Under the pieces are notes generated by a model. The model had not been told where the DNA came from and ran no database searches. It saw nothing but the letters and a program-made list of their open reading frames with translations. Position numbers and translations under genes: made by a program. DNA of 64,000 nt, from assembly GCA_002440965.1 (NCBI GenBank), contig DJWJ01000015.1, positions 34 through 64,033 of the forward strand, given 5' to 3'. Below, piece by piece: positions 4,556-61,062 of the stretch (positions within the stretch are counted from its first letter, which is position 1; each line of letters starts with the position of its first letter). The stretch comes from Candidatus Omnitrophica bacterium UBA6233 (lineage in GTDB: Bacteria; Omnitrophota; Gorgyraeia; Gygaellales; Profunditerraquicolaceae).

Positions 4556-4575
4556 GGAAAGGAAAAACAAAGATT

Positions 4576-4767
4576 ATGGCAACTGAAGAAACTAAAGCGC
4601 AGGCGGCAGCGGAAGCTAAGCCCAAGGAAGAGAAGCAGACAAACTGTTTAAGCTGTAACAAGCCGATTAAGAAGATAAGGCGTTATTACCGCGACGGAAA
4701 ATACTATTGCACCAAAAAGTGCTGGTTAAGTTTTATCAAAAAATCCAAAACTGAAAATAAAGAATGA
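4576..4767 (+). CDS. Small lysine-rich protein with C4 zinc-ribbon (CxxC...CxxxC)
   Basis: 63 aa; 'CLSCNKP...YYCTKKC'; sits between two PilZ genes and overlaps the next gene by 4 nt. Confidence 0.45.
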   Translation: MATEETKAQAAAEAKPKEEKQTNCLSCNKPIKKIRRYYRDGKYYCTKKCWLSFIKKSKTENKE

Positions 4768-10937: not shown

Positions 10938-10988
10938 AATAAGGAAGGTGGTTGTCACCTTTCAGGTGTAGCAAAAAAGGAGGCAGGC

Positions 10989-11150
10989 GTGGCGTATCAA
11001 AGTGGTGGTGGATTTGGCGGGCCAAGAGAGATGCACAAGGCGACTTGTTCGGAATGCAAAAAAGAGTGCGAAGTCCCTTTTAAGCCCAGAGAAGACCGTC
11101 CGATATACTGCAAAGAGTGTTACTCCAAGCGTAAAAACGAAGGGCGTTAA
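10989..11150 (+). CDS. Small CxxC-x17-CxxC zinc-ribbon protein (53 aa), absent from the ORF track
   Basis: GTG start 6 nt after 'AAAAAGGAGG'; 'GGGFGGPREMHKATCSECKKECEVPFKPREDRPIYCKECY'. Preferred over the listed 11002..11220 ORF in another frame. Confidence 0.5.
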   Translation: MAYQSGGGFGGPREMHKATCSECKKECEVPFKPREDRPIYCKECYSKRKNEGR

Positions 11151-11159
11151 AAGGCTAGT

Positions 11160-11194
11160 CATTGCGAGCCCCGCCTGCGGCGGGGCAAAGCAAT
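11160..11194 (+). terminator. GC-rich stem-loop (GCCCCGCC-tgc-GGCGGGGC) downstream of the zinc-ribbon gene; weak U-tract
   Basis: Perfect 8-bp GC stem with flanking ATTGC/GCAAT extension. Confidence 0.3.
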
Positions 11195-11216
11195 TTCTAC
11201 CGGAAGGAGGAATTTT

Positions 11217-12666: not shown

Positions 12667-12674
12667 AATTAGAA

Positions 12675-12719
12675 AGGGACGGTTCTATGCTAAATGGCTA
12701 TACGAATAGAACCGTCCCT
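12675..12719. repeat. GC-rich palindromic element, short form (AGGGACGGTTCTAT-N17-ATAGAACCGTCCCT)
   Basis: 14-bp perfect inverted repeat; the same termini recur at 26242, 37276 and 47651. Confidence 0.8.
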
Positions 12720-13842: not shown

Positions 13843-14070
13843 AAATAGGCGATTAGAGACAAAAAATCCCGGTAATCTCCTTCACTAATCCATCCGTAAA
13901 TGCTAACCTTAAAAGAAGGCGGTAAGTTTAAGTAATTCGAAAAGAGCTTTTCCACAGGAAAATACCAATGTATCCTAACCTCTTATTAACCATAGCCTTA
14001 GAATAATCTAGCTAATAAGCTGAAGTTAACATAAGATATATTATAGGAAGTTGAGCACAAGAAGAATTTA

Positions 14071-14098
14071 CCCGCCTATAATACCCGTTATGTTAAGA
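14071..14098. other. dif-like candidate Xer recombination site at the convergent strand-switch (cCCGCCTATAA-tacccg-TTATGTTAAGA)
   Basis: Matches the conserved 'ATAA-N6-TTATGTTAA' core of bacterial dif sites; sits in the 284-bp gap where + and - strand gene arrays converge. Confidence 0.2.
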
Positions 14099-14126
14099 TT
14101 TAGGCAGATTTTAATGATTTTAGGGC

Positions 14127-15349: not shown

Positions 15350-16486
15350 TTATTTATTAATATCGATTTCAATCAGGGAATCAACCGAACCATAGGGGTT
15401 GATTTCTCTTAGAGGATTGGAGGTATCTTCAATCCATTTTCCGTCAATAACAAAACGGTAGCGGTATTTACCGCTTGTAAGGTTTAACTTTTTACTCCAG
15501 GTTCCGTTATTACTAAGCATACGGTTTGAGTCTTCCAATTTCCAGTTATTGAATTCCCCGGCGATGTAGACATCTTTGGCATCGGGAGCAAAAACCGAGA
15601 ATATCACTTCAGTGAGTTTCGGAAGCTCCTTTTTAAGGATTTCATTCATTTTTCTCTCAAGGACGGCAATCGGCTTAGGCTCGGTTTTTCTAAAAGGCGC
15701 GCTTTCGGTTTTTCCTGTATTTTCAGGGCTAGTTTCCTGAGTGATGATTTCTCTTGAAAGGCTGTAATAGTCTTTTGCTCCACGGGAGTATTTGTCGAAA
15801 TTGAATATGTGGGTTCCCTGATTCTGGGCTTCTTTCAATTTTACATTTACATGGATAATATTTGACAATAACCTATCCCTAAAGTCAGATTTAATTTTTT
15901 CAAGCATTTTGAAAGAATGCGCCAGGCGGGAATCGAAATTTGTTACTAATATTTTGGTGTCCACGATGTGATTCAGGCGGTCGCGAACCAAGTTTACTAT
16001 GCTTAAGAGTTGATCCATGCCTTCCAGCGAAAACCTGCTTGCTTCTACCGGGATAATTACTTCATCAGCGGCCCGGATGGCGTTTATGGTCAGGATTCCC
16101 AGGTTTGGAGGGCAATCTATGAGGATATAGTCGTAATTTACCTTAAAATTGTTTAAAGTATCCCAAAGGCGGGATTCTCTTCCGATTTCCCCGGCTAGCT
16201 CCTGCTCAAGCGTGCTTAAGATAATGCTGGATGGCGCTATGTCGAAATCCGGGCTTACATTCTGGATGATATCTTCAAGTTTGGCCTTCTGATGGGTAAT
16301 TTTCGACAACACATTGTAGATACTGAAATAAGACTTGATGTTTAATCCTAGTGTAGCGTGCGCCTGGGGGTCAATATCCACCAGTAACACTTTTCTTCCG
16401 TTAGCAGCTAAAGAGGCAGCCAAATTAACCGAGGTAGTTGTTTTTCCGCATCCGCCTTTTTGATTGGTTATAGCGATTATACGCAT
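15350..16486 (-). CDS. ParA/MinD-family ATPase fused to a C-terminal CBM48 / AMPK-beta glycogen-binding domain
   Basis: Deviant Walker A 'NQKGGCGKTTT'; C-terminal 'VIFSVFAPDAKDVYIAGEFNNWK...GKYRYRFVIDGKWIEDTSNP' closely matches the AMPK1_CBM/CBM48 pattern (xVxFxWx...VyvaGsFNNW...geyeYKFiVDGeWvhDp). Confidence 0.85.
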   Translation of the reverse strand: MRIIAITNQKGGCGKTTTSVNLAASLAANGRKVLLVDIDPQAHATLGLNIKSYFSIYNVLSKITHQKAKLEDIIQNVSPDFDIAPSSIILSTLEQELAGEIGRESRLWDTLNNFKVNYDYILIDCPPNLGILTINAIRAADEVIIPVEASRFSLEGMDQLLSIVNLVRDRLNHIVDTKILVTNFDSRLAHSFKMLEKIKSDFRDRLLSNIIHVNVKLKEAQNQGTHIFNFDKYSRGAKDYYSLSREIITQETSPENTGKTESAPFRKTEPKPIAVLERKMNEILKKELPKLTEVIFSVFAPDAKDVYIAGEFNNWKLEDSNRMLSNNGTWSKKLNLTSGKYRYRFVIDGKWIEDTSNPLREINPYGSVDSLIEIDINK

Positions 16487-18684: not shown

Positions 18685-19144
18685 CAGGTCTATGGTCTAT
18701 AGTCGATAGCCTATAGTTTTAAATAATTACGAAAGCTATGGAGCATTTTTGAGAGTTCTTCGCACCTTTTATAATATACATCAAATTCAGATTGTTTGAT
18801 ATATTTTTGTTCCAAGCTTAGGTATAATAAGGTAACTACTTCATATAAAGAACCAATAGCTATTTGCAGGAATCTTGCGAGGTCTGTGTCTGAACGCCTG
18901 CCTTCTCCTTCGGCGATATTTAGGCTTATAGATACTGCTGCCCTATTTAGCTGGCTAATAATGCCGAATTTTTCGTCTTCAGGGAATTTTTTGGTTAGGC
19001 TATAGACTTCTTTAGCAAATTTTACTGATTCTTGCCAGATTTTTTAAGCTTTCAAATTTAAACGCCATTTTCGTTTATTTACCTTTGGCCATCGACTATT
19101 GACCTGGAGCTATCAGGATAATCATAGGCCTAAAGCTATCAGAG
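18685..19144 (-). mobile_element. IVS-like element: four-helix-bundle gene flanked by ~20-bp terminal inverted repeats (CAGGTC..TATAGTCGATAGCC / GGCCATCGACTATTGACCTG)
   Basis: Flanking IRs at 18685-18716 and 19087-19144; solo IR-pair copies without the gene at 21781-21893 and 23369-23472. Confidence 0.35.
18711..19068 (-). pseudogene. Four-helix-bundle protein gene (23S rRNA-intervening-sequence protein family) with a +1 frameshift in an A6 run
   Basis: Translation reads 'MAFKFESLK' then, after removing one A at 19040-19045, 'IWQESVKFAKEVYSLTKKFPEDEKFGIISQLNRAAVSISLNIAEGEGRRSDTDLARFLQIAIGSLYEV...' (119 aa). As sequenced, frame 1 stops after 19 codons. Confidence 0.55.
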
Positions 19145-20625: not shown

Positions 20626-21099
20626 TTATTTGTCAAGAGTTTTTTGGCGTTTGGGTTTTTTAGATAAATACTGGGATTTTGGCCCCAGAGCTATGCTGAT
20701 TACGGAAGAATTTCCATTAGGAATTATATTTATAATACAGCTTTCCTGTTCCCGCTCGAAGTTCATTATGCAGTCGCCGTATTCGGTTATGTTTAACAGG
20801 GCCCAGTTATGCATCGGCATCTGCTCTTTATAGAAATTAACCACCTGATCGGTTGTCGCCTTCCCTTTGTATTTTAATAGTCCGACCCGCGTGCCGGAAC
20901 TTTCAAAAGAATAAGAATCTTTGGCTGAAATTTTGAAACCTGCCGGGACAGGCAAATCCGAAAATTTTGACAAGGATTGCCGGGCTTGCAAAGTTTGGGC
21001 AGATGCGCCTTGATTTGCAAGCGAAGCGCAGCCGGTTAAAAGAGTAGTTAGCAGATAGCAGGCAGCAGGCAAGAAAAGCAGCTTCTTAGAGATACTCAT
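20626..21099 (-). CDS. Hypothetical lipoprotein
   Basis: Lipobox 'LLTGC'. Confidence 0.5.
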   Translation of the reverse strand: MSISKKLLFLPAACYLLTTLLTGCASLANQGASAQTLQARQSLSKFSDLPVPAGFKISAKDSYSFESSGTRVGLLKYKGKATTDQVVNFYKEQMPMHNWALLNITEYGDCIMNFEREQESCIINIIPNGNSSVISIALGPKSQYLSKKPKRQKTLDK

Positions 21100-21780: not shown

Positions 21781-21893
21781 TGATAGCACAGGCCTAGTTT
21801 GTCCCGATACAACAGGCCTATAGTCTATAGTTTTTACTATTGACTATCGACTATTGACCTGAAGCTATTAGAGTTATAGCGACCTGCCATTTT
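21781..21893. repeat. Solo copy of the TATAGTC inverted-repeat element (IVS-like family)
   Basis: 'TGATAGCACAGG...CTATAGTCTATAGT..ACTATTGACTATCGACTATTGACCTGAAGCTATTAGAG'. Confidence 0.7.
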
Positions 21894-21907
21894 TCAAGAT
21901 ATATCAG

Positions 21908-21981
21908 TGCCCCTGGCAGGAATCGAACCTGCCACACGCAGTTTAGGAAACTGCTGCTCTATCCTTATGAGCTACAGGGGC
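21908..21981 (-). tRNA. tRNA-Arg (anticodon CCT)
   Basis: Cloverleaf readable on the - strand: acceptor GCCCCTG/CAGGGGC, D-arm GCTC-ATAAGGATA-GAGC, anticodon stem GCAGT/ACTGC with loop TTCCTAA, T-arm GCAGG-TTCGATT-CCTGC; no encoded CCA. Confidence 0.8.
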
Positions 21982-23368: not shown

Positions 23369-23472
23369 TTAGGTCTATATTTATCCTGATAGCGCAGGTC
23401 TATAGTCAATAGTTTATTTTTGTTATTGACTATAGACTATTGACCTGAAGCTATCAGAGCCATATTGACCTG
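23369..23472. repeat. Solo copy of the TATAGTC inverted-repeat element, exactly filling the sigma-factor/ppdK spacer
   Basis: 'GATAGCGCAGGTCTATAGTCAATAG...TTGACTATAGACTATTGACCTGAAGCTATCAGAG'. Confidence 0.7.
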
Positions 23473-26211
23473 TTATTTTTTCTTTCCCTTTAACACTGCT
23501 TGGGCTGCCGCAAGTTTTGCAATCGGAACTCTAAACGGCGAACAGCTTACGTAATTCATTCCTACCTTGTGGCAGAACTCGACTGACTTTGGCTCGCCGC
23601 CATGCTCGCCGCAAATTCCTACCTCAAGGTTTTTATTGGTTTTTCTGCCTCTTTCGATGCCGATCTTGATCAATTGGCCAATACCTTCCTGGTCAATGCT
23701 CTGGAACGGATCTTCCGGCAGTATGCCTTTTTTAATGTATTCCGGCACAAAACTTCCGATGTCATCACGGGAGAAACCAAATCCCATCTGGGTCAGATCA
23801 TTGGTTCCAAATGAGAAGAACTGCGCTACTGTTGCCAGTTTATCCGCGACTAAAGCCGCCCGCGGTATCTCGATCATCGTGCCAAACATATGCTTAATCG
23901 CTTTGAGATTGTATTTTTTCAAAACTTCCGCGTAAATTGCTTTGGCTATTACGAGCTGGTCGTCAAGTTCTTTAACATCGCAAACCACCGGGATCATTAT
24001 TTCCGGGTAAGGTTTTTTACCTTCTTTGATCAATTCAGCCGCTGCTTCAAATATGGCGCGGATCTGCATTGCGCTGATTTCCGGATAGGTCACACCTAGG
24101 CGCACACCGCGATGGCCCATCATGGGATTGGATTCATGCAAATTTTCAGCGCGTTTGGATAATTCTTCCATACTGATGTTCAGTTCCTTGGCAATCTCTT
24201 CCAATTTTGCCTGCTCGCGGGGAACAAACTCATGCAGAGGCGGGTCAAGCAAGCGGATAACTACTGGAAATCCGTCCATTGCCGCCAGCGTTCCTTTAAT
24301 ATCTTTTTTTACATACGGGAACAATTCTTCGGTAGCTTTCTTTCTTTCTTCCGTTGTTTTGGAAATGATCATTTTACGCAGGATAAATAACGGCTCATCC
24401 GCGCCTTTACCGTAGAACATATGCTCGGTTCTGAATAACCCTATTCCTTCGGCTCCGAATTGACGCGCTTTGGAAGCGTCTTCCGGAGTTTCAGCGTTGG
24501 TGCGGATACCGAGTTTTTTGATGGTGCCGCAGATCTTTAAGAAATCCATCAGCATTGTATTTTCTTCGGAAGCATCCATCATCGGAAGCTTGCCTTCGTA
24601 TACCGCGCCTTTGGTTCCGTTAAGAGTGATCCAATCGCCTTCTTTTAAGGTTTTGCCCCCTGCGCTGATTGTTTTGTTTTCGGAATCAACATGCAGGTCG
24701 CTTGCGCCTACGATACAGCATTTACCCCATCCGCGGGCAACTAAGGCTGCGTGGCTAGTCATTCCGCCGCGGGCAGTAAGGATTGCTTCAGCCGCGCGCA
24801 TACCTTCAACATCTTCAGGATTTGTCTCTTCGCGTAAAAGTATTACTTTTTTGCCCTGTTGTTTCCAGGCTACCGCGTCTTTAGCGTTAAAGACAATCTG
24901 TCCACACGCGCCTCCCGGGCCAGCAGGCAGACCTTTGACTAACGGTTTGCTCGTCGCTTCAACTTTAGGATCGATGATCGGGTGAAGCAATTCATCTAAT
25001 TGGCTGGGGGTAACGCGCATAACCGCTTCTTCTTTTTTAATCAGTTTTTCTTTGATCATATCCATACACATGCGTACTGCTGCCGGGCCATTACGTTTTC
25101 CTACGCGGCACTGCAACATAAAGAGTCTCCCCTTTTCAATGGTAAACTCGATATCCTGCATATCATGGTAATGATTTTCCAGGCGTTCCTGGATCGCGAA
25201 AAGTTCTTTGTAAATTGCGGGCATACCTTTTTCCAGTGTCAGTAAATCTTTGTTATGCGCTGACTGGGAAAATGTGTTGATTGGAGCTGGCGTTCTGATG
25301 CCGGCAACTACATCTTCGCCTTGAGCGTTGATTAAATACTCGCCGTAGAAATGAGGATCGCCGTTTCCGGGATTACGGGTAAAAGCCACACCGGTAGCTG
25401 AATCATTACCCATGTTTCCGAAAACCATGGTTTGCACGTTTACCGCTGTTCCCCATTCATCCGGTATGCCTTCGATTCGGCGATAGCTGATTGCGCGCTT
25501 GCCGTTCCAGGAAGAAAATACCGCGCTAATACCTCCCCATAATTGCTGCATTGGCTCGTCTGGAAATTCTTTGCCTAAAACTTCTTTGATCTTTATTTTA
25601 TATCTGGCGCAGATATCTTTCAGGTCGGAAAGAGTCAAATCCGTATCCGCCTTAGAACCCCTCTTCTGCTTTACTTCATCCATAATCCGTTCAAGCTGTT
25701 TACGGATACCCAGGTCATCCTTTGGTTCGATGCCGGCTGCTTTTTCCATAACTACGTCGGAGTACATTGTAATCAGCCTGCGGTAAGCATCATAAACAAA
25801 GCGTTCATTGCCGCCTGCTTGCTTGATCAAACCGGGGATTGTTTTTTCAGTTAACCCTACGTTTAAAACCGTCTCCATCATTCCAGGCATGGATTTTCTG
25901 GCTCCAGAACGCACCGAAACTAAAAGCGGATTCGTCGAATCGCCGAATTTTCTACCCATAAGTTTTTCAACGGTAGCCAGCGCTTTTTCAACCTGGGCTT
26001 TTAGTTCTTTGGGGTAAGATTTTTTATGTTCATAATAATAAGTGCAGACTTCCGTAGTGAGAGTAAATCCGGGAGGAACAGGAAGTTTTAAATTTTTATG
26101 GCCGGCCATTTCCGCTAGGTTCGCGCCTTTGCCGCCTAAAAGATTTTTCATACTTTCATTGCCATCTGCTTTGCCGCCGCCAAAACTGTAAACATACTTT
26201 TTGGTACTCAT
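23473..26211 (-). CDS. ppdK: Pyruvate, phosphate dikinase
   Basis: 'MSTKKYVYSFGGGKADGNESMKNLLGGKGANLAEM' canonical PPDK start; PEP-utilising and TIM-barrel domains throughout. The ORF-track N-terminal 26 aa read into the upstream palindrome and are not included. Confidence 0.9.
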   Translation of the reverse strand: MSTKKYVYSFGGGKADGNESMKNLLGGKGANLAEMAGHKNLKLPVPPGFTLTTEVCTYYYEHKKSYPKELKAQVEKALATVEKLMGRKFGDSTNPLLVSVRSGARKSMPGMMETVLNVGLTEKTIPGLIKQAGGNERFVYDAYRRLITMYSDVVMEKAAGIEPKDDLGIRKQLERIMDEVKQKRGSKADTDLTLSDLKDICARYKIKIKEVLGKEFPDEPMQQLWGGISAVFSSWNGKRAISYRRIEGIPDEWGTAVNVQTMVFGNMGNDSATGVAFTRNPGNGDPHFYGEYLINAQGEDVVAGIRTPAPINTFSQSAHNKDLLTLEKGMPAIYKELFAIQERLENHYHDMQDIEFTIEKGRLFMLQCRVGKRNGPAAVRMCMDMIKEKLIKKEEAVMRVTPSQLDELLHPIIDPKVEATSKPLVKGLPAGPGGACGQIVFNAKDAVAWKQQGKKVILLREETNPEDVEGMRAAEAILTARGGMTSHAALVARGWGKCCIVGASDLHVDSENKTISAGGKTLKEGDWITLNGTKGAVYEGKLPMMDASEENTMLMDFLKICGTIKKLGIRTNAETPEDASKARQFGAEGIGLFRTEHMFYGKGADEPLFILRKMIISKTTEERKKATEELFPYVKKDIKGTLAAMDGFPVVIRLLDPPLHEFVPREQAKLEEIAKELNISMEELSKRAENLHESNPMMGHRGVRLGVTYPEISAMQIRAIFEAAAELIKEGKKPYPEIMIPVVCDVKELDDQLVIAKAIYAEVLKKYNLKAIKHMFGTMIEIPRAALVADKLATVAQFFSFGTNDLTQMGFGFSRDDIGSFVPEYIKKGILPEDPFQSIDQEGIGQLIKIGIERGRKTNKNLEVGICGEHGGEPKSVEFCHKVGMNYVSCSPFRVPIAKLAAAQAVLKGKKK

Positions 26212-26241
26212 TGCTTTTAAAACCCTGCCTTTCTTATCTTC

Positions 26242-26316
26242 AGGGACGGTTCTCAAGCCAATCTTAAAGTGTCCCCCTAATGGGGACACTTTTGCCTTGA
26301 GTTGAGAACCGTCCCT
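26242..26316. repeat. GC-rich palindromic element, long form with nested hairpin (AGGGACGGTTCTCAA...GTGTCCCC-n5-GGGGACAC...TTGAGAACCGTCCCT)
   Basis: Same termini as 12675; near-identical copy at 37276-37350. Confidence 0.8.
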
Positions 26317-27619
26317 AAACTAATTTGTTGGACAAATATTCTTTTAATTTCTCTACTGGAATTCTCTCTTGTTGCATGGTATCACGGTCGCGAACAGTAA
26401 CTTGTTTGTCCTCCAGGCTCTGCACGTCAACCGTAACGCAAAAAAGCGTTCCTACCTCGTCCTGTCTTCGGTAAAGTTTGCCGATCGCGCCGGTATCATC
26501 ATAAACCGTAACAATAGTTTTCTTCAGATCCTGGGCGATTTTCTTAGCGAGTTCGACTATTTCCGGCCTGTTCCTTAAAAGCGGCAGCACTGCCACTTTG
26601 GTGGGAGCCAGGTCTTTGTGGATCTTTAAAACTACACGCAGGTCTTCTCTGACTTTTTCTTCGTGATAGGCATCTACCAAAAACGCCAAAACTGCCCGGT
26701 CAACTCCGCCCGAAGGCTCGATTATATAGGGGTAAAATCTTTCTTTTGCCGCGTCGTCAAAATACTGCAAGTCTTTACCGCTGTGCTGGGAATGTTGTTT
26801 TAGATCAAAATCCGTGCGGTTGGCAATTCCTTCCAGTTCGCTCCAGCCGAAAGGAAAATTGTATTCTACGTCAGTGCAGGCGCGGGCATAGTGCGCCAAT
26901 TCGTCTTTATCGTGCTGGCGTTGTCTCAAGCTTTCTTTTTTTATTCCGAGGCCAAGATACCAGTTAAAGCGGTAGGAAATCCATTCGTCAAGCGCCCTGT
27001 CTGCGTCAAGCGGCCGGACAAAATATTCAATCTCCATCTGTTCAAATTCCCTGGTGCGGAAAGTAAAATTCCCCGGAGTAATTTCATTGCGGAAAGATTT
27101 TCCGATTTGCGCCAAACCAAAGGGGAGTTTGGGATGCCGGGAATCAAGAATATTCAAAAAATTCACAAACATGCCTTGGGCAGTTTCCGGCCGCATATAT
27201 ATTTCATTGCCGCTTTCTTCTACCGGCCCCTGGTAGGTTTTAAACATCAGGTTAAAGGCCTTAGCTTCAGTGAGCGCGCCGCCACATTCAGGGCATTTGT
27301 TTTTATCCTTAAGGTCCTCGCTCTTGAAACGTTTTTTACAATTTTTACAGTCGCTCTTTAAATCGAAAAAATTCTGCACGTGTCCCGAAGCTTCCCAGAC
27401 TTTAGGGTGCATAAGGATAGCCGCGTCCATGCCGAAAATATCATTACGCTCGTAAACATTCGCCTTCCACCAGGCGCGCTTAAGGTTATTCTTAAGCTCA
27501 ACGCCGTATGGGCCGTAATCCCAGGTATTGCTTAGGCCTCCGTAAATATCCGAAGACTGGAATATAAAACCTCTGCGTTTGCAAAGGGAAACTATTTTTT
27601 CCATCAGGTTATCGCTCAT
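26315..27619 (-). CDS. glyQS: Glycine--tRNA ligase (alpha2 dimeric type)
   Basis: 'LCKRRGFIFQSSDIYGGLSNTWDYGPYGVELKNNLKRAWW' matches the GlyQS N-terminus. The first 13 ORF-track codons are a likely extension. Confidence 0.9.
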   Translation of the reverse strand: MSDNLMEKIVSLCKRRGFIFQSSDIYGGLSNTWDYGPYGVELKNNLKRAWWKANVYERNDIFGMDAAILMHPKVWEASGHVQNFFDLKSDCKNCKKRFKSEDLKDKNKCPECGGALTEAKAFNLMFKTYQGPVEESGNEIYMRPETAQGMFVNFLNILDSRHPKLPFGLAQIGKSFRNEITPGNFTFRTREFEQMEIEYFVRPLDADRALDEWISYRFNWYLGLGIKKESLRQRQHDKDELAHYARACTDVEYNFPFGWSELEGIANRTDFDLKQHSQHSGKDLQYFDDAAKERFYPYIIEPSGGVDRAVLAFLVDAYHEEKVREDLRVVLKIHKDLAPTKVAVLPLLRNRPEIVELAKKIAQDLKKTIVTVYDDTGAIGKLYRRQDEVGTLFCVTVDVQSLEDKQVTVRDRDTMQQERIPVEKLKEYLSNKLV

Positions 27620-36336: not shown

Positions 36337-37267
36337 ATGCTTCGATAATCCTTTGAACCAAGGCGTGTCTTACTACATCGGCTCCGCTAAAACGGACAAA
36401 TTTAATTCCTTCGGTAGAGCTTAAAATATCTTGAGCCTGTAAAAGTCCGATTGGTTTGCCGTTAGGCAAGTCGCTTTGGGTTATGTCCCCGGTTATTACA
36501 GCTTTAGAATCAAAACCCAGGCGGGTCAGAAACATTTTCATTTGTTCGGCGGTGCAATTTTGCGCTTCGTCCAAAATGATAAAAGCGTCATTGAGAGTCC
36601 TTCCTCTCATATAGGCTAATGGGGCTACTTCAATAATTCCGGTTTCAATGTATTTTTCAATACGTTCCGCTTCCATCATATCATAGAGCGCGTCATATAA
36701 TGGTCTCAAATAAGGCAATATTTTTTCTTGCATATCACCCGGCAGGAACCCTAATGACTCGCCTGCTTCAATCGCCGGGCGCGTAAGTATTATCCTGCGC
36801 ACTTCCTGTTTTTTAAGGGCTTCGACCGCGCAAGTCATCGCCAAATATGTCTTTCCTGTTCCTGCCGGGCCGATACCGAAAACGATGTCATATTGTTTTA
36901 TTGCTTCTACGTATTCCCTTTGGCCGGTAGTCTTGGGTTCTATTTGTTTTCCGCTGGCAGCGCGTATTATACCGTTCTCTCGGATCTCTGGAGAATTTGT
37001 TCTTCCGGGAGTTTTAAAATTGGAAATTAGGCAGGTTAAATCCAACCCTTCTGTTTTTTGCTGGCCCAAACGATAAATATTTAGAATATGTTCGATAAGG
37101 CCGGAGACCTTTTTTATATTTGCTGCGGTTCCGCTTAATTTTAGATGCTCTCCGCGCAAGGTTAATTTCACTTTAAACTCTTTTTCAATTAGCTTAGCCT
37201 TGGCGTCCTGCAAGCCCAGGAGTTCTTGCGCTTCCAGATGAGTCTGTAATTTGATTATTTTATCCAT
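36311..37267 (-). CDS. phoH: PhoH-family ATPase
   Basis: Walker A 'GPAGTGKT', 'IILTRPAIEAGESLGFLPGD', 'IILDEAQN'. Confidence 0.9.
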   Translation of the reverse strand: MDKIIKLQTHLEAQELLGLQDAKAKLIEKEFKVKLTLRGEHLKLSGTAANIKKVSGLIEHILNIYRLGQQKTEGLDLTCLISNFKTPGRTNSPEIRENGIIRAASGKQIEPKTTGQREYVEAIKQYDIVFGIGPAGTGKTYLAMTCAVEALKKQEVRRIILTRPAIEAGESLGFLPGDMQEKILPYLRPLYDALYDMMEAERIEKYIETGIIEVAPLAYMRGRTLNDAFIILDEAQNCTAEQMKMFLTRLGFDSKAVITGDITQSDLPNGKPIGLLQAQDILSSTEGIKFVRFSGADVVRHALVQRIIEAYDKANRKD

Positions 37268-37275
37268 ATTTAGTT

Positions 37276-37350
37276 AGGGACGGTTCTCAACTCAAGGCAA
37301 AAGTGTCCCCTTAATAGGGACACTTTTAGCTTAGTTTGAGAACCGTCCCT
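37276..37350. repeat. GC-rich palindromic element, long form (copy of 26242-26316)
   Basis: AGGGACGGTTCTCAACTCAAGGC..GTGTCCCC-ttaat-AGGGACAC..GAGAACCGTCCCT. Confidence 0.8.
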
Positions 37351-37355
37351 GTTTC

Positions 37356-39316: not shown

Positions 39317-39335
39317 AGTAATAATTATGTTAATG

Positions 39336-39485
39336 TAAAATGTCCAAATCCAAATGACAAATGAAATCCAAAATCCCAATGTTAAATATCAAAACAACAG
39401 TTTTGTTATTTGGAATTTGACATTTGCCTGCCTGCCGGACAGGCAGGGATTTATTTTGGATTTTGAGTTTTGTCATTTGTCATTA
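39336..39485. repeat. AT-rich imperfect-palindrome repeat (CAAAATCCAAA / AAATGACAAA word family) with central GC hairpin CCTGCCTG-ccgga-CAGGCAGG
   Basis: Arms 'tccaaatccaaatgacaaatgaaatccaaaatcc' and 'ggattttggattttgagttttgtcatttgtca'; related copies at 44628, 49391, 50669, 60939. Confidence 0.7.
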
Positions 39486-40713: not shown

Positions 40714-40791
40714 TTAAATTTTTAGTAGGTAGTATTTAGTATGTAGGTTCATTCTACCTGCTGCCTACTATCTACTAACTACTCTATTTCT

Positions 40792-44617: not shown

Positions 44618-44627
44618 ATTCAAAATC

Positions 44628-44750
44628 CAAATTCCAAAGCACAAAATTCAAAATAAATTCAAATATTAAATGACAAAACTCCAATTTTGGTATTCATTAT
44701 TAGAATTTTGAATTTATCTTGAGTTTGGATTTTGTCATTTGGTATTTATG
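44628..44750. repeat. AT-rich imperfect-palindrome repeat (copy 2)
   Basis: 'CAAAATCCAAATTCCAAAGCACAAAATTCAAAATAAATTCAAAT...TTTGAATTTATCTTGAGTTTGGATTTTGTCATTTGG'. Confidence 0.7.
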
Positions 44751-47467: not shown

Positions 47468-47650
47468 TTTAGATTTCTCCTCAATTTCCTCCTCGTCTTG
47501 GTGTTGGAAATTAACCCTAGTAGAACGAGAAATTGTTGAAACTTGTTATTTATCAGTAAGTTACGATATTTTAACTCATTTTTGGTGAGTTTTTTACGAA
47601 AGGATAGAAAATTTTACACCTCTAAGCTCAATTTGTCAAGAGAAAATTAA

Positions 47651-47695
47651 AGGGACGGTTCTAGGCTAAATAGCTCTTAGAATAGAACCGTCCCT
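47651..47695. repeat. GC-rich palindromic element, short form (AGGGACGGTTCTAG-N17-ATAGAACCGTCCCT)
   Basis: Near-identical to 12675-12719, including the loop 'gctaaatRgct'. Confidence 0.8.
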
Positions 47696-49373: not shown

Positions 49374-49390
49374 AAAATCCTCCCTTTTTT

Positions 49391-49515
49391 GAAATCCAAA
49401 TGTCCAAGCTCAAAATCCAAAATAAATTTAAATGACAAATACCCAATGACAAAACTTGTGTTTTGATATTTGAGTTTTAGATTTATTTTGAGCTTTGAAT
49501 TTTATCATTTGTCAT
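49391..49515. repeat. AT-rich imperfect-palindrome repeat (copy 3), filling the groES-groEL spacer
   Basis: 'GAAATCCAAATGTCCAAGCTCAAAATCCAAAATAAATTTAAATGACAAAT...TTTGAGTTTTAGATTTATTTTGAGCTTTGAATTTTATCATTTGTCATT'. Confidence 0.7.
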
Positions 49516-49523
49516 TACATTGC

Positions 49524-49814: not shown

Positions 49815-49841
49815 AAGTTCCCTCCTTTGATTTGGTTAATT

Positions 49842-49868
49842 TTAGCACTTAATTCCCAAGAGTGCTAA
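49842..49868 (-). promoter_or_regulatory. CIRCE element (HrcA operator) TTAGCACTT-N9-GAGTGCTAA
   Basis: One mismatch to the TTAGCACTC-N9-GAGTGCTAA consensus; directly abuts the -10 box of the groES promoter. Confidence 0.75.
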
Positions 49869-49895
49869 TTATAAACAATTTTTTTTTTTTGTCAA
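49868..49895 (-). promoter_or_regulatory. Sigma70-type groES promoter TTGACA-16-TATAAT
   Basis: On the - strand: TTGACA (49895-49890), spacer A11+TTGTT, TATAAT (49873-49868). Confidence 0.6.
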
Positions 49896-50659: not shown

Positions 50660-50668
50660 ATTATTTAA

Positions 50669-50800
50669 TGTCAAATTACAAAATTCAAATGACAAATGAA
50701 ATCCAAAATCCCAATGACAAATACCAAAACAAAAATTTTATTATTTAGAATTTGACATTTGGATTTATTTTGGATTTTGTGCTTTGACATTTGTCATTTC
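50669..50800. repeat. AT-rich imperfect-palindrome repeat (copy 4)
   Basis: 'CAAAATTCAAATGACAAATGAAATCCAAAATCCCAATGACAAATACC...TTTGGATTTATTTTGGATTTTGTGCTTTGACATTTGTCATTTC'; overlaps the last ~12 codons of uvrB. Confidence 0.7.
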
Positions 50801-60298: not shown

Positions 60299-60951
60299 AT
60301 TTTTTCCCCAAGTAAATCAATCAGAGATTTTACCATCTTTTCCTTTGATGAAATCCGGCCGCTGTTTTTTTCTTTACTGACTAAATATGCGGCATACCGT
60401 CTATTTTTCGAGGTATTGGCTACGACCAGGTCAAGACTGGAATTTTTAAGCAAAGAACGTCCTTTATTTACTAATTTATTTCCTGATAAATCCGGTTCAA
60501 ACTTAAATCCGACTAGGAATGAACCAAGCGCAGCCTTACGCAAACTAGCTATAATTTTAGGTGTGCGCTTAAAAGCCAATTCCAAAATATTTTTGTCAGA
60601 GTTAATCTTGGTTTTGCTTACCTTAATTGGCCGGTAATCCGAAATAGCCGCAGCCTGAATTATCGCGTCATATTTCTTTTTAAGCGCGTTTTTTACTAAT
60701 GAATTTAATTCGTCAAAGAACTTAAAATTTACGACTTTAATTTTCTTGTTTAAAGAATAAGCGCCAATCGGGCCAAGTAATAATGTTATTTTCGCGCCTC
60801 TTTTGGTTAAGTCTTCAGCCAACAAGATCCCGGTTTTACCGGTTGAAGTATTGCTAATTACTCTTACATTGTCTATCGGAACCCAAGTAGGCCCGGCAGT
60901 GATTAAGATTTTTTTATTTTTAAGCATATTTACTTTAATGTCAAATGACAA
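60295..60951 (-). CDS. coaB: Phosphopantothenate--cysteine ligase (monofunctional CoaB domain only)
   Basis: 'KKILITAGPTWVPIDNVRVISNTSTGKTG' CoaB signature; only 218 aa with no CoaC half. Confidence 0.8.
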   Translation of the reverse strand: MSFDIKVNMLKNKKILITAGPTWVPIDNVRVISNTSTGKTGILLAEDLTKRGAKITLLLGPIGAYSLNKKIKVVNFKFFDELNSLVKNALKKKYDAIIQAAAISDYRPIKVSKTKINSDKNILELAFKRTPKIIASLRKAALGSFLVGFKFEPDLSGNKLVNKGRSLLKNSSLDLVVANTSKNRRYAAYLVSKEKNSGRISSKEKMVKSLIDLLGEKI

Positions 60952-61058
60952 AGCACAAAATTCAAAATAAATTTAAATGTCAAAATAAAAATGAAAAAAC
61001 ATCTGTTTTGAAATTTGAGCTTTAGATTTATTTTGTGCTTTGAATTTTGTCATTTGAA
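60939..61058. repeat. AT-rich imperfect-palindrome repeat (copy 5)
   Basis: 'GTCAAATGACAAAGCACAAAATTCAAAATAAATTTAAATGTCAAAAT...TTTGAGCTTTAGATTTATTTTGTGCTTTGAATTTTGTCATTTG'. Confidence 0.7.
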
Positions 61059-61062
61059 TTTA

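Follow-up and report, generated by a model that had tools for sequence, protein, structure and literature searches.

We analyzed a 64,000-nt stretch of the Candidatus Omnitrophica bacterium UBA6233 assembly (GCA_002440965.1, contig DJWJ01000015.1, forward-strand positions 34 to 64,033; hereafter, the window), in which five spacers between co-transcribed minus-strand genes, among them the spacer between groES and groEL, were each nearly filled by a copy of one AT-rich imperfect palindrome of 127-155 bp. [quoted passage not shown] The family is apparently undescribed; its general type, the MITE, is familiar, and the heptad-word arms are unusual. Omnitrophota have not been cultured; most of these bacteria are ultra-small, their genomes are compact and dense in operons, and to our knowledge their mobile DNA is essentially undescribed; no described repeats in Omnitrophota were found in the literature searched.

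Five Copies in the Window

A preliminary description of the window, made from the sequence alone, had named five AT-rich repeat copies in these spacers. A profile built from the five copies matched just those loci in the 64 kb (nhmmer, E 5e-34 to 2e-29; next match, E 1.8). The E-values are inflated, since the five copies had themselves served to train the model. The refined boundaries, which include the terminal TA where present, lie within a few nucleotides of the coordinates given before (table 1). A 31-nt degenerate pattern derived from the arms had seven matches in the window and none in 100 dinucleotide shuffles, and a repeat search of the window returned the identical five loci as direct and inverted families. 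The G+C content of the copies was 0.20-0.32, compared with ~0.41 for the window. By predicted folding, each copy forms one long interrupted hairpin of -28 to -34 kcal/mol (z -3.7 to -5.5), and none of 200 shuffles was as stable, in agreement with the long imperfect hairpins first described. The names given earlier to the flanking genes agree with the Pfam domains at all five junctions. All genes from ~14 kb onward lie on the minus strand, and the strand listed for the copies is that of the flanking genes; the element itself is a near-palindrome.

The groES-groEL spacer, for which ~150 nt of repeat had been claimed, measures 150 nt, and copy 3 fills all of it except the Shine-Dalgarno (SD) motif of groEL, GGGAGG, which lies just 3' of the copy. 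The tight packing claimed for the surrounding genes was only partly upheld: many of them overlap or lie <25 nt apart (e.g., at 52.7-60.3 kb), but the window has several other spacers of 60-250 nt, and these carry different repeat families. Three features had escaped the preliminary description, namely the heptad-word build, the spread over many Omnitrophota genomes, and the two upstream genes that end inside the element.

Empty Sites in Syntenic Relatives

By its GroEL, the contig belongs to Candidatus Omnitrophota. The five sites were compared with those of three relatives (L004, L005, and L007), which are syntenic over 21 kb and whose GroEL proteins are 92-95% identical. No family member was found in these three relatives, and all five sites were empty. 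The groES-groEL spacer measured 39, 22, and 104 nt, with no family match, and the guaA-dnaE spacer 63, 30, and 176 nt, with no element; hisS and aspS overlapped at ATGCTAA-type junctions in L004, L005, and L007, and overlaps were likewise observed between uvrB and coaX (L004 and L005) and between thrC and coaB (L007). Since the sites were empty in the relatives, with the genes overlapping or 22-176 nt apart, we concluded that the copies in the window are insertions. This comparison had been suggested in the preliminary description, which held that orthologous spacers lacking the repeat words would speak against an element; such spacers were indeed observed, and they are evidence for insertion, not against it.

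The upstream genes provided a further view of the insertions. The reading frames of hisS and uvrB each continue for 33 nt inside the element, use one frame of it, and stop at the same element TAA, so that the two proteins carry similar element-derived ends (table 1) in place of the ends found in the relatives, where HisS terminates in ...KELKC* or ...KRLKC* and UvrB in ...LLKMSK*. Histidyl-tRNA synthetase (HisRS) is 420 aa long in the window versus 412 aa in the relatives, and UvrB is 663 aa versus 658 and 660 aa. When copy 1 and one TA are taken out, hisS regains an in-frame stop. In this species, the insertions are fixed, as contigs covering the groES-groEL site indicate: all contigs found in other samples that encode an identical GroES or GroEL and span the spacer are filled, and several short contigs from other samples break inside this copy.

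At the guaA-dnaE junction of L007, the spacer (16210-16385) holds three tandem units of ~57 nt, each with the hairpin CTTGCGAAC...GTGAGCAAG. Judged by these units, the junction is colonized by a different repeat in this relative.

Table 1. Copies of the repeat in the window, features associated with them, and related loci in other genomes
Feature	Position	Strand	Remarks
Copy 1, hisS/aspS junction (HisRS, AspRS; Pfam)	39331..39485	-	155 nt including nested 21-nt GC hairpin; nhmmer E 3e-30
Copy 2, guaA/dnaE junction (GMP synthase, DnaE; Pfam)	44620..44748	-	129 nt; nhmmer E 2e-29
Copy 3, groES/groEL junction (Cpn10, GroEL; Pfam)	49390..49517	-	128 nt; nhmmer E 5e-34
Copy 4, uvrB/coaX junction (UvrB, type III pantothenate kinase; Pfam)	50666..50799	-	134 nt; nhmmer E 2e-30
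Copy 5, thrC-like/coaB-like junction (PALP, DFP; Pfam)	60936..61062	-	127 nt; nhmmer E 9e-31
Element-derived hisS end, last 10 codons and stop	39451..39483	-	MTNDKTQNPK* (translation)
Element-derived uvrB end, last 10 codons and stop	50765..50797	-	MTNVKAQNPK* (translation)
Nested small GC hairpin CCTGCCTGCCGGACAGGCAGG in copy 1	39427..39447		Absent from copy 4, otherwise 88% identical
Recurrences of the GC hairpin	L017 3212-3896 (x3), L026 1304, L032 2079, L037 4323, L057 1577, L066 3452, L089 6451		
Tandem heptamer-array loci	L030 1977-2033, L062 1076-1110, L071 6774-6808, L104 3843-3877		

Ends and Heptad-Word Arms

An alignment of the copies, also suggested in the preliminary description, confirmed that the ends of the element are discrete. 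Conservation ends at (T)TAATGA...TCATTA(A), beyond which the flanks are unrelated, and TA was present at most boundaries (45/68 left ends and 51/68 right ends, vs. ~6/68 at other flank positions). The consensus termini are TAATGACAAATGACAAA... and ...TTTGTCATTTGTCATTA, and the whole unit is an imperfect palindrome. An arm is a series of three to four heptad words, in which three variable bases follow CAAA, then a single 11-mer, CAAAATAAATC, then about three further heptads; a short loop separates the two arms. Since the element is palindromic, an A/C-rich arm comes first and a T/G-rich arm second on either strand. The spacing between CAAA and CAAA (or TTTG and TTTG) peaked at 7, 14, and 21 nt, with 580, 381, and 193 occurrences, and the vocabulary of words was small: CAAATGA, CAAAATT, CAAAGCA, CAAAATC, CAAATAA, CAAATGT, and CAAATAC. 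The arms are systematically imperfect mirrors of each other, with the order tending to be ...ATT-GCA-[11-mer] in the 5' arm and ...GCA-ATT-[11-mer] in the reverse-complemented 3' arm. No open reading frame (ORF) belonging to the element itself was found, and its only coding capacity is the 10-codon read-through tails.

A weaker excess at lags of 7, 14, and 21 nt was also observed in the other spacers of these loci, and the window has at least two more families of heptad-word palindromes with different vocabularies. Thus, the 7-nt period seems to characterize the intergenic repeats of these genomes and not just this family.

Distribution and Turnover of the Family

A census with the 31-nt pattern on the GTDB species-representative genomes matched at least 101 stretches. 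Most of these belong to metagenome-assembled genomes (MAGs) labeled Candidatus Omnitrophota or to "Planctomycetia" bins, recovered from groundwater and deep mines, from the Black Sea and Guaymas sediment, and from marine biofilms, and about two dozen MAGs share the word order. Among the matches listed for the profile on these loci, 123 were nonoverlapping and 98 of them full-length, with a median length of 136 bp (interquartile range 133-138). The G+C content of the element was 0.25 +/- 0.03 across host G+C contents of 0.38-0.52 (r = 0.03); because it is independent of the host, the words are no compositional artifact, and the possibility raised in the preliminary description that they simply reflect AT-rich, low-complexity bias was not borne out.

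The copies were only slightly more similar within one MAG (0.71) than between MAGs (0.63), and the nearest neighbor of a copy was in the same MAG in 39 of 64 cases, compared with 7.8 expected. These results pointed to amplification inside individual lineages, superimposed on a family that is old and shared. Among other pairs of MAGs, orthologous spacers were filled, were empty, or held unrelated sequence or other repeats, and orthologous copies were 0.67-0.86 alike versus 0.74 for random pairs. Because the spacers are this variable and the orthologous copies no more alike than random pairs, the pattern fits repeated colonization of permissive junctions; for the same reason, we rejected orthologous copies as a sign of an ancient conserved function.

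Some full-length members were observed under unexpected labels, in contigs binned as Gracilibacteria (L009), Bathyarchaeia (L048), Uhrbacteria (L095), and Bacteroidetes (L015). The contig of L009 uses TGA as a stop codon and that of L048 encodes ClpB and HtrA, which makes both labels doubtful; L095 and L015 encode prephenate dehydratase. Some of these four are probably mis-binned Omnitrophota contigs. L097, however, truly belongs to Wildermuthbacteria, of the candidate phyla radiation (CPR), as its DnaE matches Wildermuthbacteria/Patescibacteria proteins at 96% and 85%. It has a shortened family member between the genes for RNase HII and L32 (5347-5449) and a second, separate TTTG-heptad array of the same vocabulary (464-505). 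The orthologous spacer has a different sequence in the 96% relative and is just 57 nt long in the 85% relative, with the element in neither, and this one locus suggests occasional cross-phylum transfer. A long variant was observed in the Patescibacteria-labeled L082 (5354-5620), with tandem TTTTGGGATTTGGGATTTATTTTGGGATTTGTG units and with A-rich and T-rich arms separated by ~150 nt of unrelated sequence. Carriage by viruses was considered and rejected, as the two pattern matches in giant-virus MAGs had no profile support.

Gene Context and Tolerance of the Insertions

With both neighbors called, 73 of 81 copies sit between co-directional genes, against a baseline in these loci that is already 87%. 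The upstream stop codon lies within 8 nt on either side of the element start in ~27/53 copies and inside the element in 10/53, and one and the same TAA serves seven of these 10. In 31/53, no more than 15 nt separate the element from the first in-frame ATG of the downstream gene, and an SD-like motif was present in eight of those 31. Within its first 11 codons, the consensus 5' arm closes each of the three frames with a stop, and because the element is palindromic, it does so in either insertion orientation.

We proposed that the element would insert at very short, TA-containing stop/start junctions of co-transcribed genes and would thereafter be co-transcribed with them; transposition would occur in trans by some enzyme, with TA as the duplicated target. 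Such an insertion would be tolerated because the 5' arm closes any upstream ORF, because the element lacks the terminator signal of a G+C hairpin with a U-run behind it, and because no more than ~15 nt come to lie between the 3' end and the downstream start. As it completes the upstream gene, a ribosome may open the stem at its base and lay bare the U-rich arm beside the next start codon, and this melting could keep translation coupled.

The hairpin itself appeared to be a consequence of the inverted arms rather than an RNA structure kept by compensatory change, since we found neither covariation nor an advantage of the sense strand: own arms paired no better (-36.1 kcal/mol) than chimeric arms (-38.1 kcal/mol), and the sense strand was the more stable in 33 copies and the antisense strand in 31 (p = 0.49). 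In Rfam searches, only a tRNA passed the gathering threshold in the whole window, and copy 3 at E <= 10 returned only miRNA-hairpin noise of 12-19 bits, compared with thresholds of 65-211.

Several copies contain TTGACA or TTGTCA words, and the preliminary description had suggested that these could act as internal promoters, which would then drive the downstream essential genes. We consider this highly improbable. The region at 39.0-51.2 kb has 23 promoter-like sites, compared with 24.5 +/- 4.5 in shuffles, and the weak matches inside copies 1, 2, 3, and 4 reach only 9/12; moreover, the distance from the TTGACA words to the next ATG is 9-15 nt, which is too short to fit a -10 box. The groES gene has its own perfect sigma-70-type promoter, TTGACA-16-TATAAT, at 49895-49868 (12/12; minus strand, region 49815-49895), followed on its 3' side by a CIRCE-like inverted repeat, TTAGCACTC-N9-AAGTGCTAA, and the SD motif AAGGAGGG. 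These motifs predict ordinary HrcA-type heat-shock control upstream of the split operon.

Evidence against Mobility and Alternative Explanations

Several results weigh against the proposal that the copies are mobile elements. The exact empty allele of the groES-groEL site had no match in the JGI metagenomes. The TA is itself palindromic and continues the inverted repeat, and may belong to the palindrome rather than to a target duplication, whose junction is not exactly readable because the flanks in the relatives are only 70-83% identical. A search for an autonomous partner found no inward-facing termini or heptad arrays flanking an ORF (across 0.4-4 kb) in ~800 kb around the copies. Solo arms exist. 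The copy set was ascertained by one pattern, the genes were called by a crude longest-ORF rule, and the MAG labels were taken as given unless stated. In addition, conservation was three to five times better in the CAAA/TTTG cores than in the variable slots, and this was so even for copies with 85-99% identity to each other. Between 90-99% identical copies, core columns differed at 0.027 and other columns at 0.096 (3.6 times less), and the core/other ratio was 0.2-0.3 at every divergence level. Ascertainment bias was rejected as the cause, because the ratio held in the inner arm, outside the search pattern (cores 0.081, others 0.243; ratio ~0.3). Such a core excess is not expected from the neutral decay of dead copies; it could come from per-copy selection or from word replacement by conversion, and recent descent from core-keeping masters is a further possible source. 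Finally, the orientation of the element relative to transcription was biased (46 vs. 19, p = 0.001; MAG-wise cross-validated, core-only model), which random insertion without selection does not predict. The bias is driven by a few MAGs, one with 15/16, and the copies in the window are split 3 versus 2; it would reflect either RNA-level selection or an insertion mechanism tied to replication direction, which are indistinguishable here. Earlier orientation figures (50 vs. 18 overall, 30 vs. 3 among confident calls) were discarded, as they came from a model trained on the window copies plus a few flank bases.

These observations bear on an alternative that we regard as unlikely, although worth serious attention, in which the element is an intercistronic module selected by the host. 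Its CAAA/UUUG heptads would bind an S1-, Csp-, or KH-like protein or another factor and would set translation coupling, mRNA processing, or stability between cistrons, and its mobility would be secondary or ancient. The core conservation, which extends outside the ascertainment region, and the gene-relative orientation bias both speak for such a module, as do the close abutment of the element on stop and start codons (with 23 of the 31 copies near a downstream start lacking an SD-like motif), the 7-nt periodicity in other spacers, and the other heptad-word palindromes of the window. There are also precedents, in the TAACTGA heptamers upstream of start codons (PMC4679880) and in the orientation-dependent effects of ERIC sequences on mRNA stability (PMC2229807). 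However, close relatives run the same essential operons without the element, orthologous copies are no better conserved than random pairs, there is neither compensatory pairing nor a folding advantage of the sense strand, no binding protein was identified, and young copies of core-keeping masters would also give core conservation. This explanation and the mobile-element explanation are not mutually exclusive. A bolder version, which strikes us as rather doubtful, is that the element is a portable, "translationally transparent" intercistronic module in Omnitrophota and at least one CPR bacterium, with cores kept by binding a conserved single-strand nucleic-acid-binding protein. If so, the module would supply a stop for the upstream gene and an SD-independent, ribosome-unmasked restart for the downstream gene, and it would constitute a mobile translational coupler able to replace overlapping-gene coupling in compact genomes.

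We give very little credence to the idea that there is no element at all and that the spacers are AT-rich low-complexity sequence or heptad microsatellites expanded in place, which our results largely refute. Solo arms and the heptamer tandem arrays with TTTG cores, which turned up as chance pattern matches in Kaistella and Dechloromonas, would fit such expansion; the fixed unit length, the word order conserved over about two dozen MAGs, the host-independent G+C content, the discrete ends, and the lack of shuffle matches do not, and at the sites of the relatives there are short spacers or gene overlaps, not arrays that have grown part of the way. Site-specific recombination sites, either boundaries like integron attC/VCR or REPINs of the REP/RAYT type, deserve almost no weight. 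At first sight, imperfect palindromes of ~125 bp between co-oriented, packed genes resemble a cassette array, but the genes on either side have housekeeping roles and keep their order in relatives without the repeats, and are thus not cassettes. By inspection, the consensus termini have no RYYYAAC/GTTRRRY core sites and no GTAG-headed, G+C-rich REP stem, and no integrase or RAYT gene was noticed in the Pfam lists of the neighboring genes.

Comparison with Known Repeats

By the properties listed for them, bacterial MITEs are <200 bp in size and noncoding, have terminal inverted repeats and TA termini, occur with both filled and empty sites, give transcripts that fold into long stem-loops, and form fusions with ORFs (PMC2229807). 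The Omnitrophota family agrees with these in size and noncoding nature (127-155 bp in the window, median profile match 136 bp), in its terminal inverted repeats and TA termini, and in its dispersal, with five copies in the window, 123 matches in ~100 loci among the matches listed, and both filled and empty sites. Stem-loops are supported by predicted folding, and their transcription may be expected from the position inside operons. On the basis of this match, we classed the family as MITE-like with heptad-word arms. A cognate insertion sequence (IS) or transposase sharing the termini is a mechanistic criterion that we added to the published list; within ~800 kb around the copies, none was found. 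This differs from RUP, a repeat defined by having terminal repeats that resemble IS630-Spn1. Otherwise, RUP and the rest of the IS630-derived MITEs are like the family small noncoding palindromes; they are mobilized in trans, as is proposed for the family, and TA termini are compatible with TA target duplication (PMC2229807).

ERIC and the Correia/NEMIS repeats appear to be the closest functional analogues. ERIC (IRU, 127 bp) is of similar size, is an imperfect palindrome at transcribed intergenic sites in operons, has TA termini, fuses with ORF ends, and is conserved in many species, and how it affects mRNA depends on its orientation (PMC2229807). In contrast with the Omnitrophota family, it has no heptad words and belongs to another phylum and base composition, and functional data on mRNA are available for it, while the present family is known here from sequence. 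Copy 3 had no blastn match (word size 11, E <= 0.01) in 5,426 complete Escherichia coli genomes, which hold ERIC, REP, and related repeats, and no match in the PLSDB plasmids. The Correia/NEMIS repeats of Neisseria resemble the family in their length of 100-155 bp, their terminal inverted repeats with TA at the ends, their occurrence at sites that are filled or empty, their long stem-loops, and their ORF fusions, and they are co-transcribed with neighboring genes, as is proposed for the family (PMC2229807). Their sequence is unrelated, however, and an integration host factor (IHF) site, functional promoters, and a role as RNase III substrates are known from Correia, whereas promoters are not supported in the Omnitrophota family.

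Integron attC/VCR sites bound mobile cassettes and have R''/R' core sites, unlike the repeats described here, whose flanks are housekeeping genes and in which inspection revealed no core sites. A REP forms a short stem that is G+C-rich, its conserved head is of the GTAG type, and it is paired with a single-copy RAYT gene. Neither the GTAG-headed stem (termini, by inspection) nor a RAYT gene (Pfam lists of the neighbors) was seen for the Omnitrophota family. REPINs resemble the family in being intergenic, hairpin-forming, and nonautonomous and in evolving within genomes (PMC3116915).

For the 7-nt period, the closest architectural analogue appears to be the TAACTGA direct repeats, and the cyanobacterial STRR heptamers are likewise comparable with the family in this periodicity. 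[quoted passage not shown] TAACTGA and STRR are, however, plain tandem arrays of a single heptamer and vary in length, whereas the Omnitrophota family has a fixed length, several words in a conserved order, two inverted arms, and discrete ends.

Significance

The family shows that even the groES-groEL junction and overlapping pairs of essential genes can be split by a 130-bp insertion, and it points to a recipe for survivable insertion: three-frame stops at entry, no terminator, and a start codon kept at exit. The heptad architecture with protected cores links MITEs to the unexplained heptamer repeats of cyanobacteria and Beggiatoaceae and provides a tractable sequence for asking what reads a 7-nt period. 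In practical terms, these repeats break assemblies and distort gene calls (false N-terminal extensions, captured C-terminal tails), and they could mark mis-binned Omnitrophota contigs.

Other Repeats and Features

The GC clamp that the preliminary description had noted in copy 1 is real and is a separate repeat nested in the element. This 21-nt hairpin, CCTGCCTG-N-CAGGCAGG, recurs at seven unrelated loci of other MAGs (table 1) and is terminator-like on the plus strand only, that is, antisense to the genes. It is a small dispersed repeat in its own right, and its behavior is like that of a tiny mobile hairpin that has entered larger repeats.

Three further palindrome families were observed in the window. 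The second family has G+C-rich ends, AGGGACGGTTCT...AGAACCGTCCCT, and occurs at 12673-12719, 26241-26327, 37265-37351, and 47649-47695; the last copy sits just past the groEL stop with a T-run behind it on the minus strand, and this family thus looks like a shared intrinsic-terminator repeat. The third family is a heptad-word palindrome, GTCTATA/GTCAATA...TATTGAC/TATAGAC, at 18694-19139, 21815-21894, and 23397-23480, one copy of which adjoins a tRNA gene at 21908-21981. A fourth, TAGTAGG TAGTATT TAGTATG...CCTACTA TCTACTA ACTACT, lies in the hisS/HU spacer (40714-40791), and a related arm was found 19.7 kb away, at 21038-21069.

The chance pattern matches of the census, in Kaistella, Dechloromonas, and a gammaproteobacterial MAG, were tandem arrays of (ATTTGAG)n, (ATTTGCG)n, and (ATTTGTT)n (table 1), and L104, an Omnitrophota-type "Planctomycetia" bin, carries (CAAACAG)n. 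The arrays in those taxa indicate that heptamer microsatellites with TTTG cores occur in several phyla.

At 13843-14126 of the window, the gene orientation switches from plus to minus at a convergent junction with a 284-nt spacer, and the GC skew changes sign within a few kilobases after it. The apparent spacers at 4556-4763 and 10938-11216 contain short ORFs with paired CxxC motifs, likely small zinc-ribbon-like proteins, which fell below our ORF cut-off of 80 aa.

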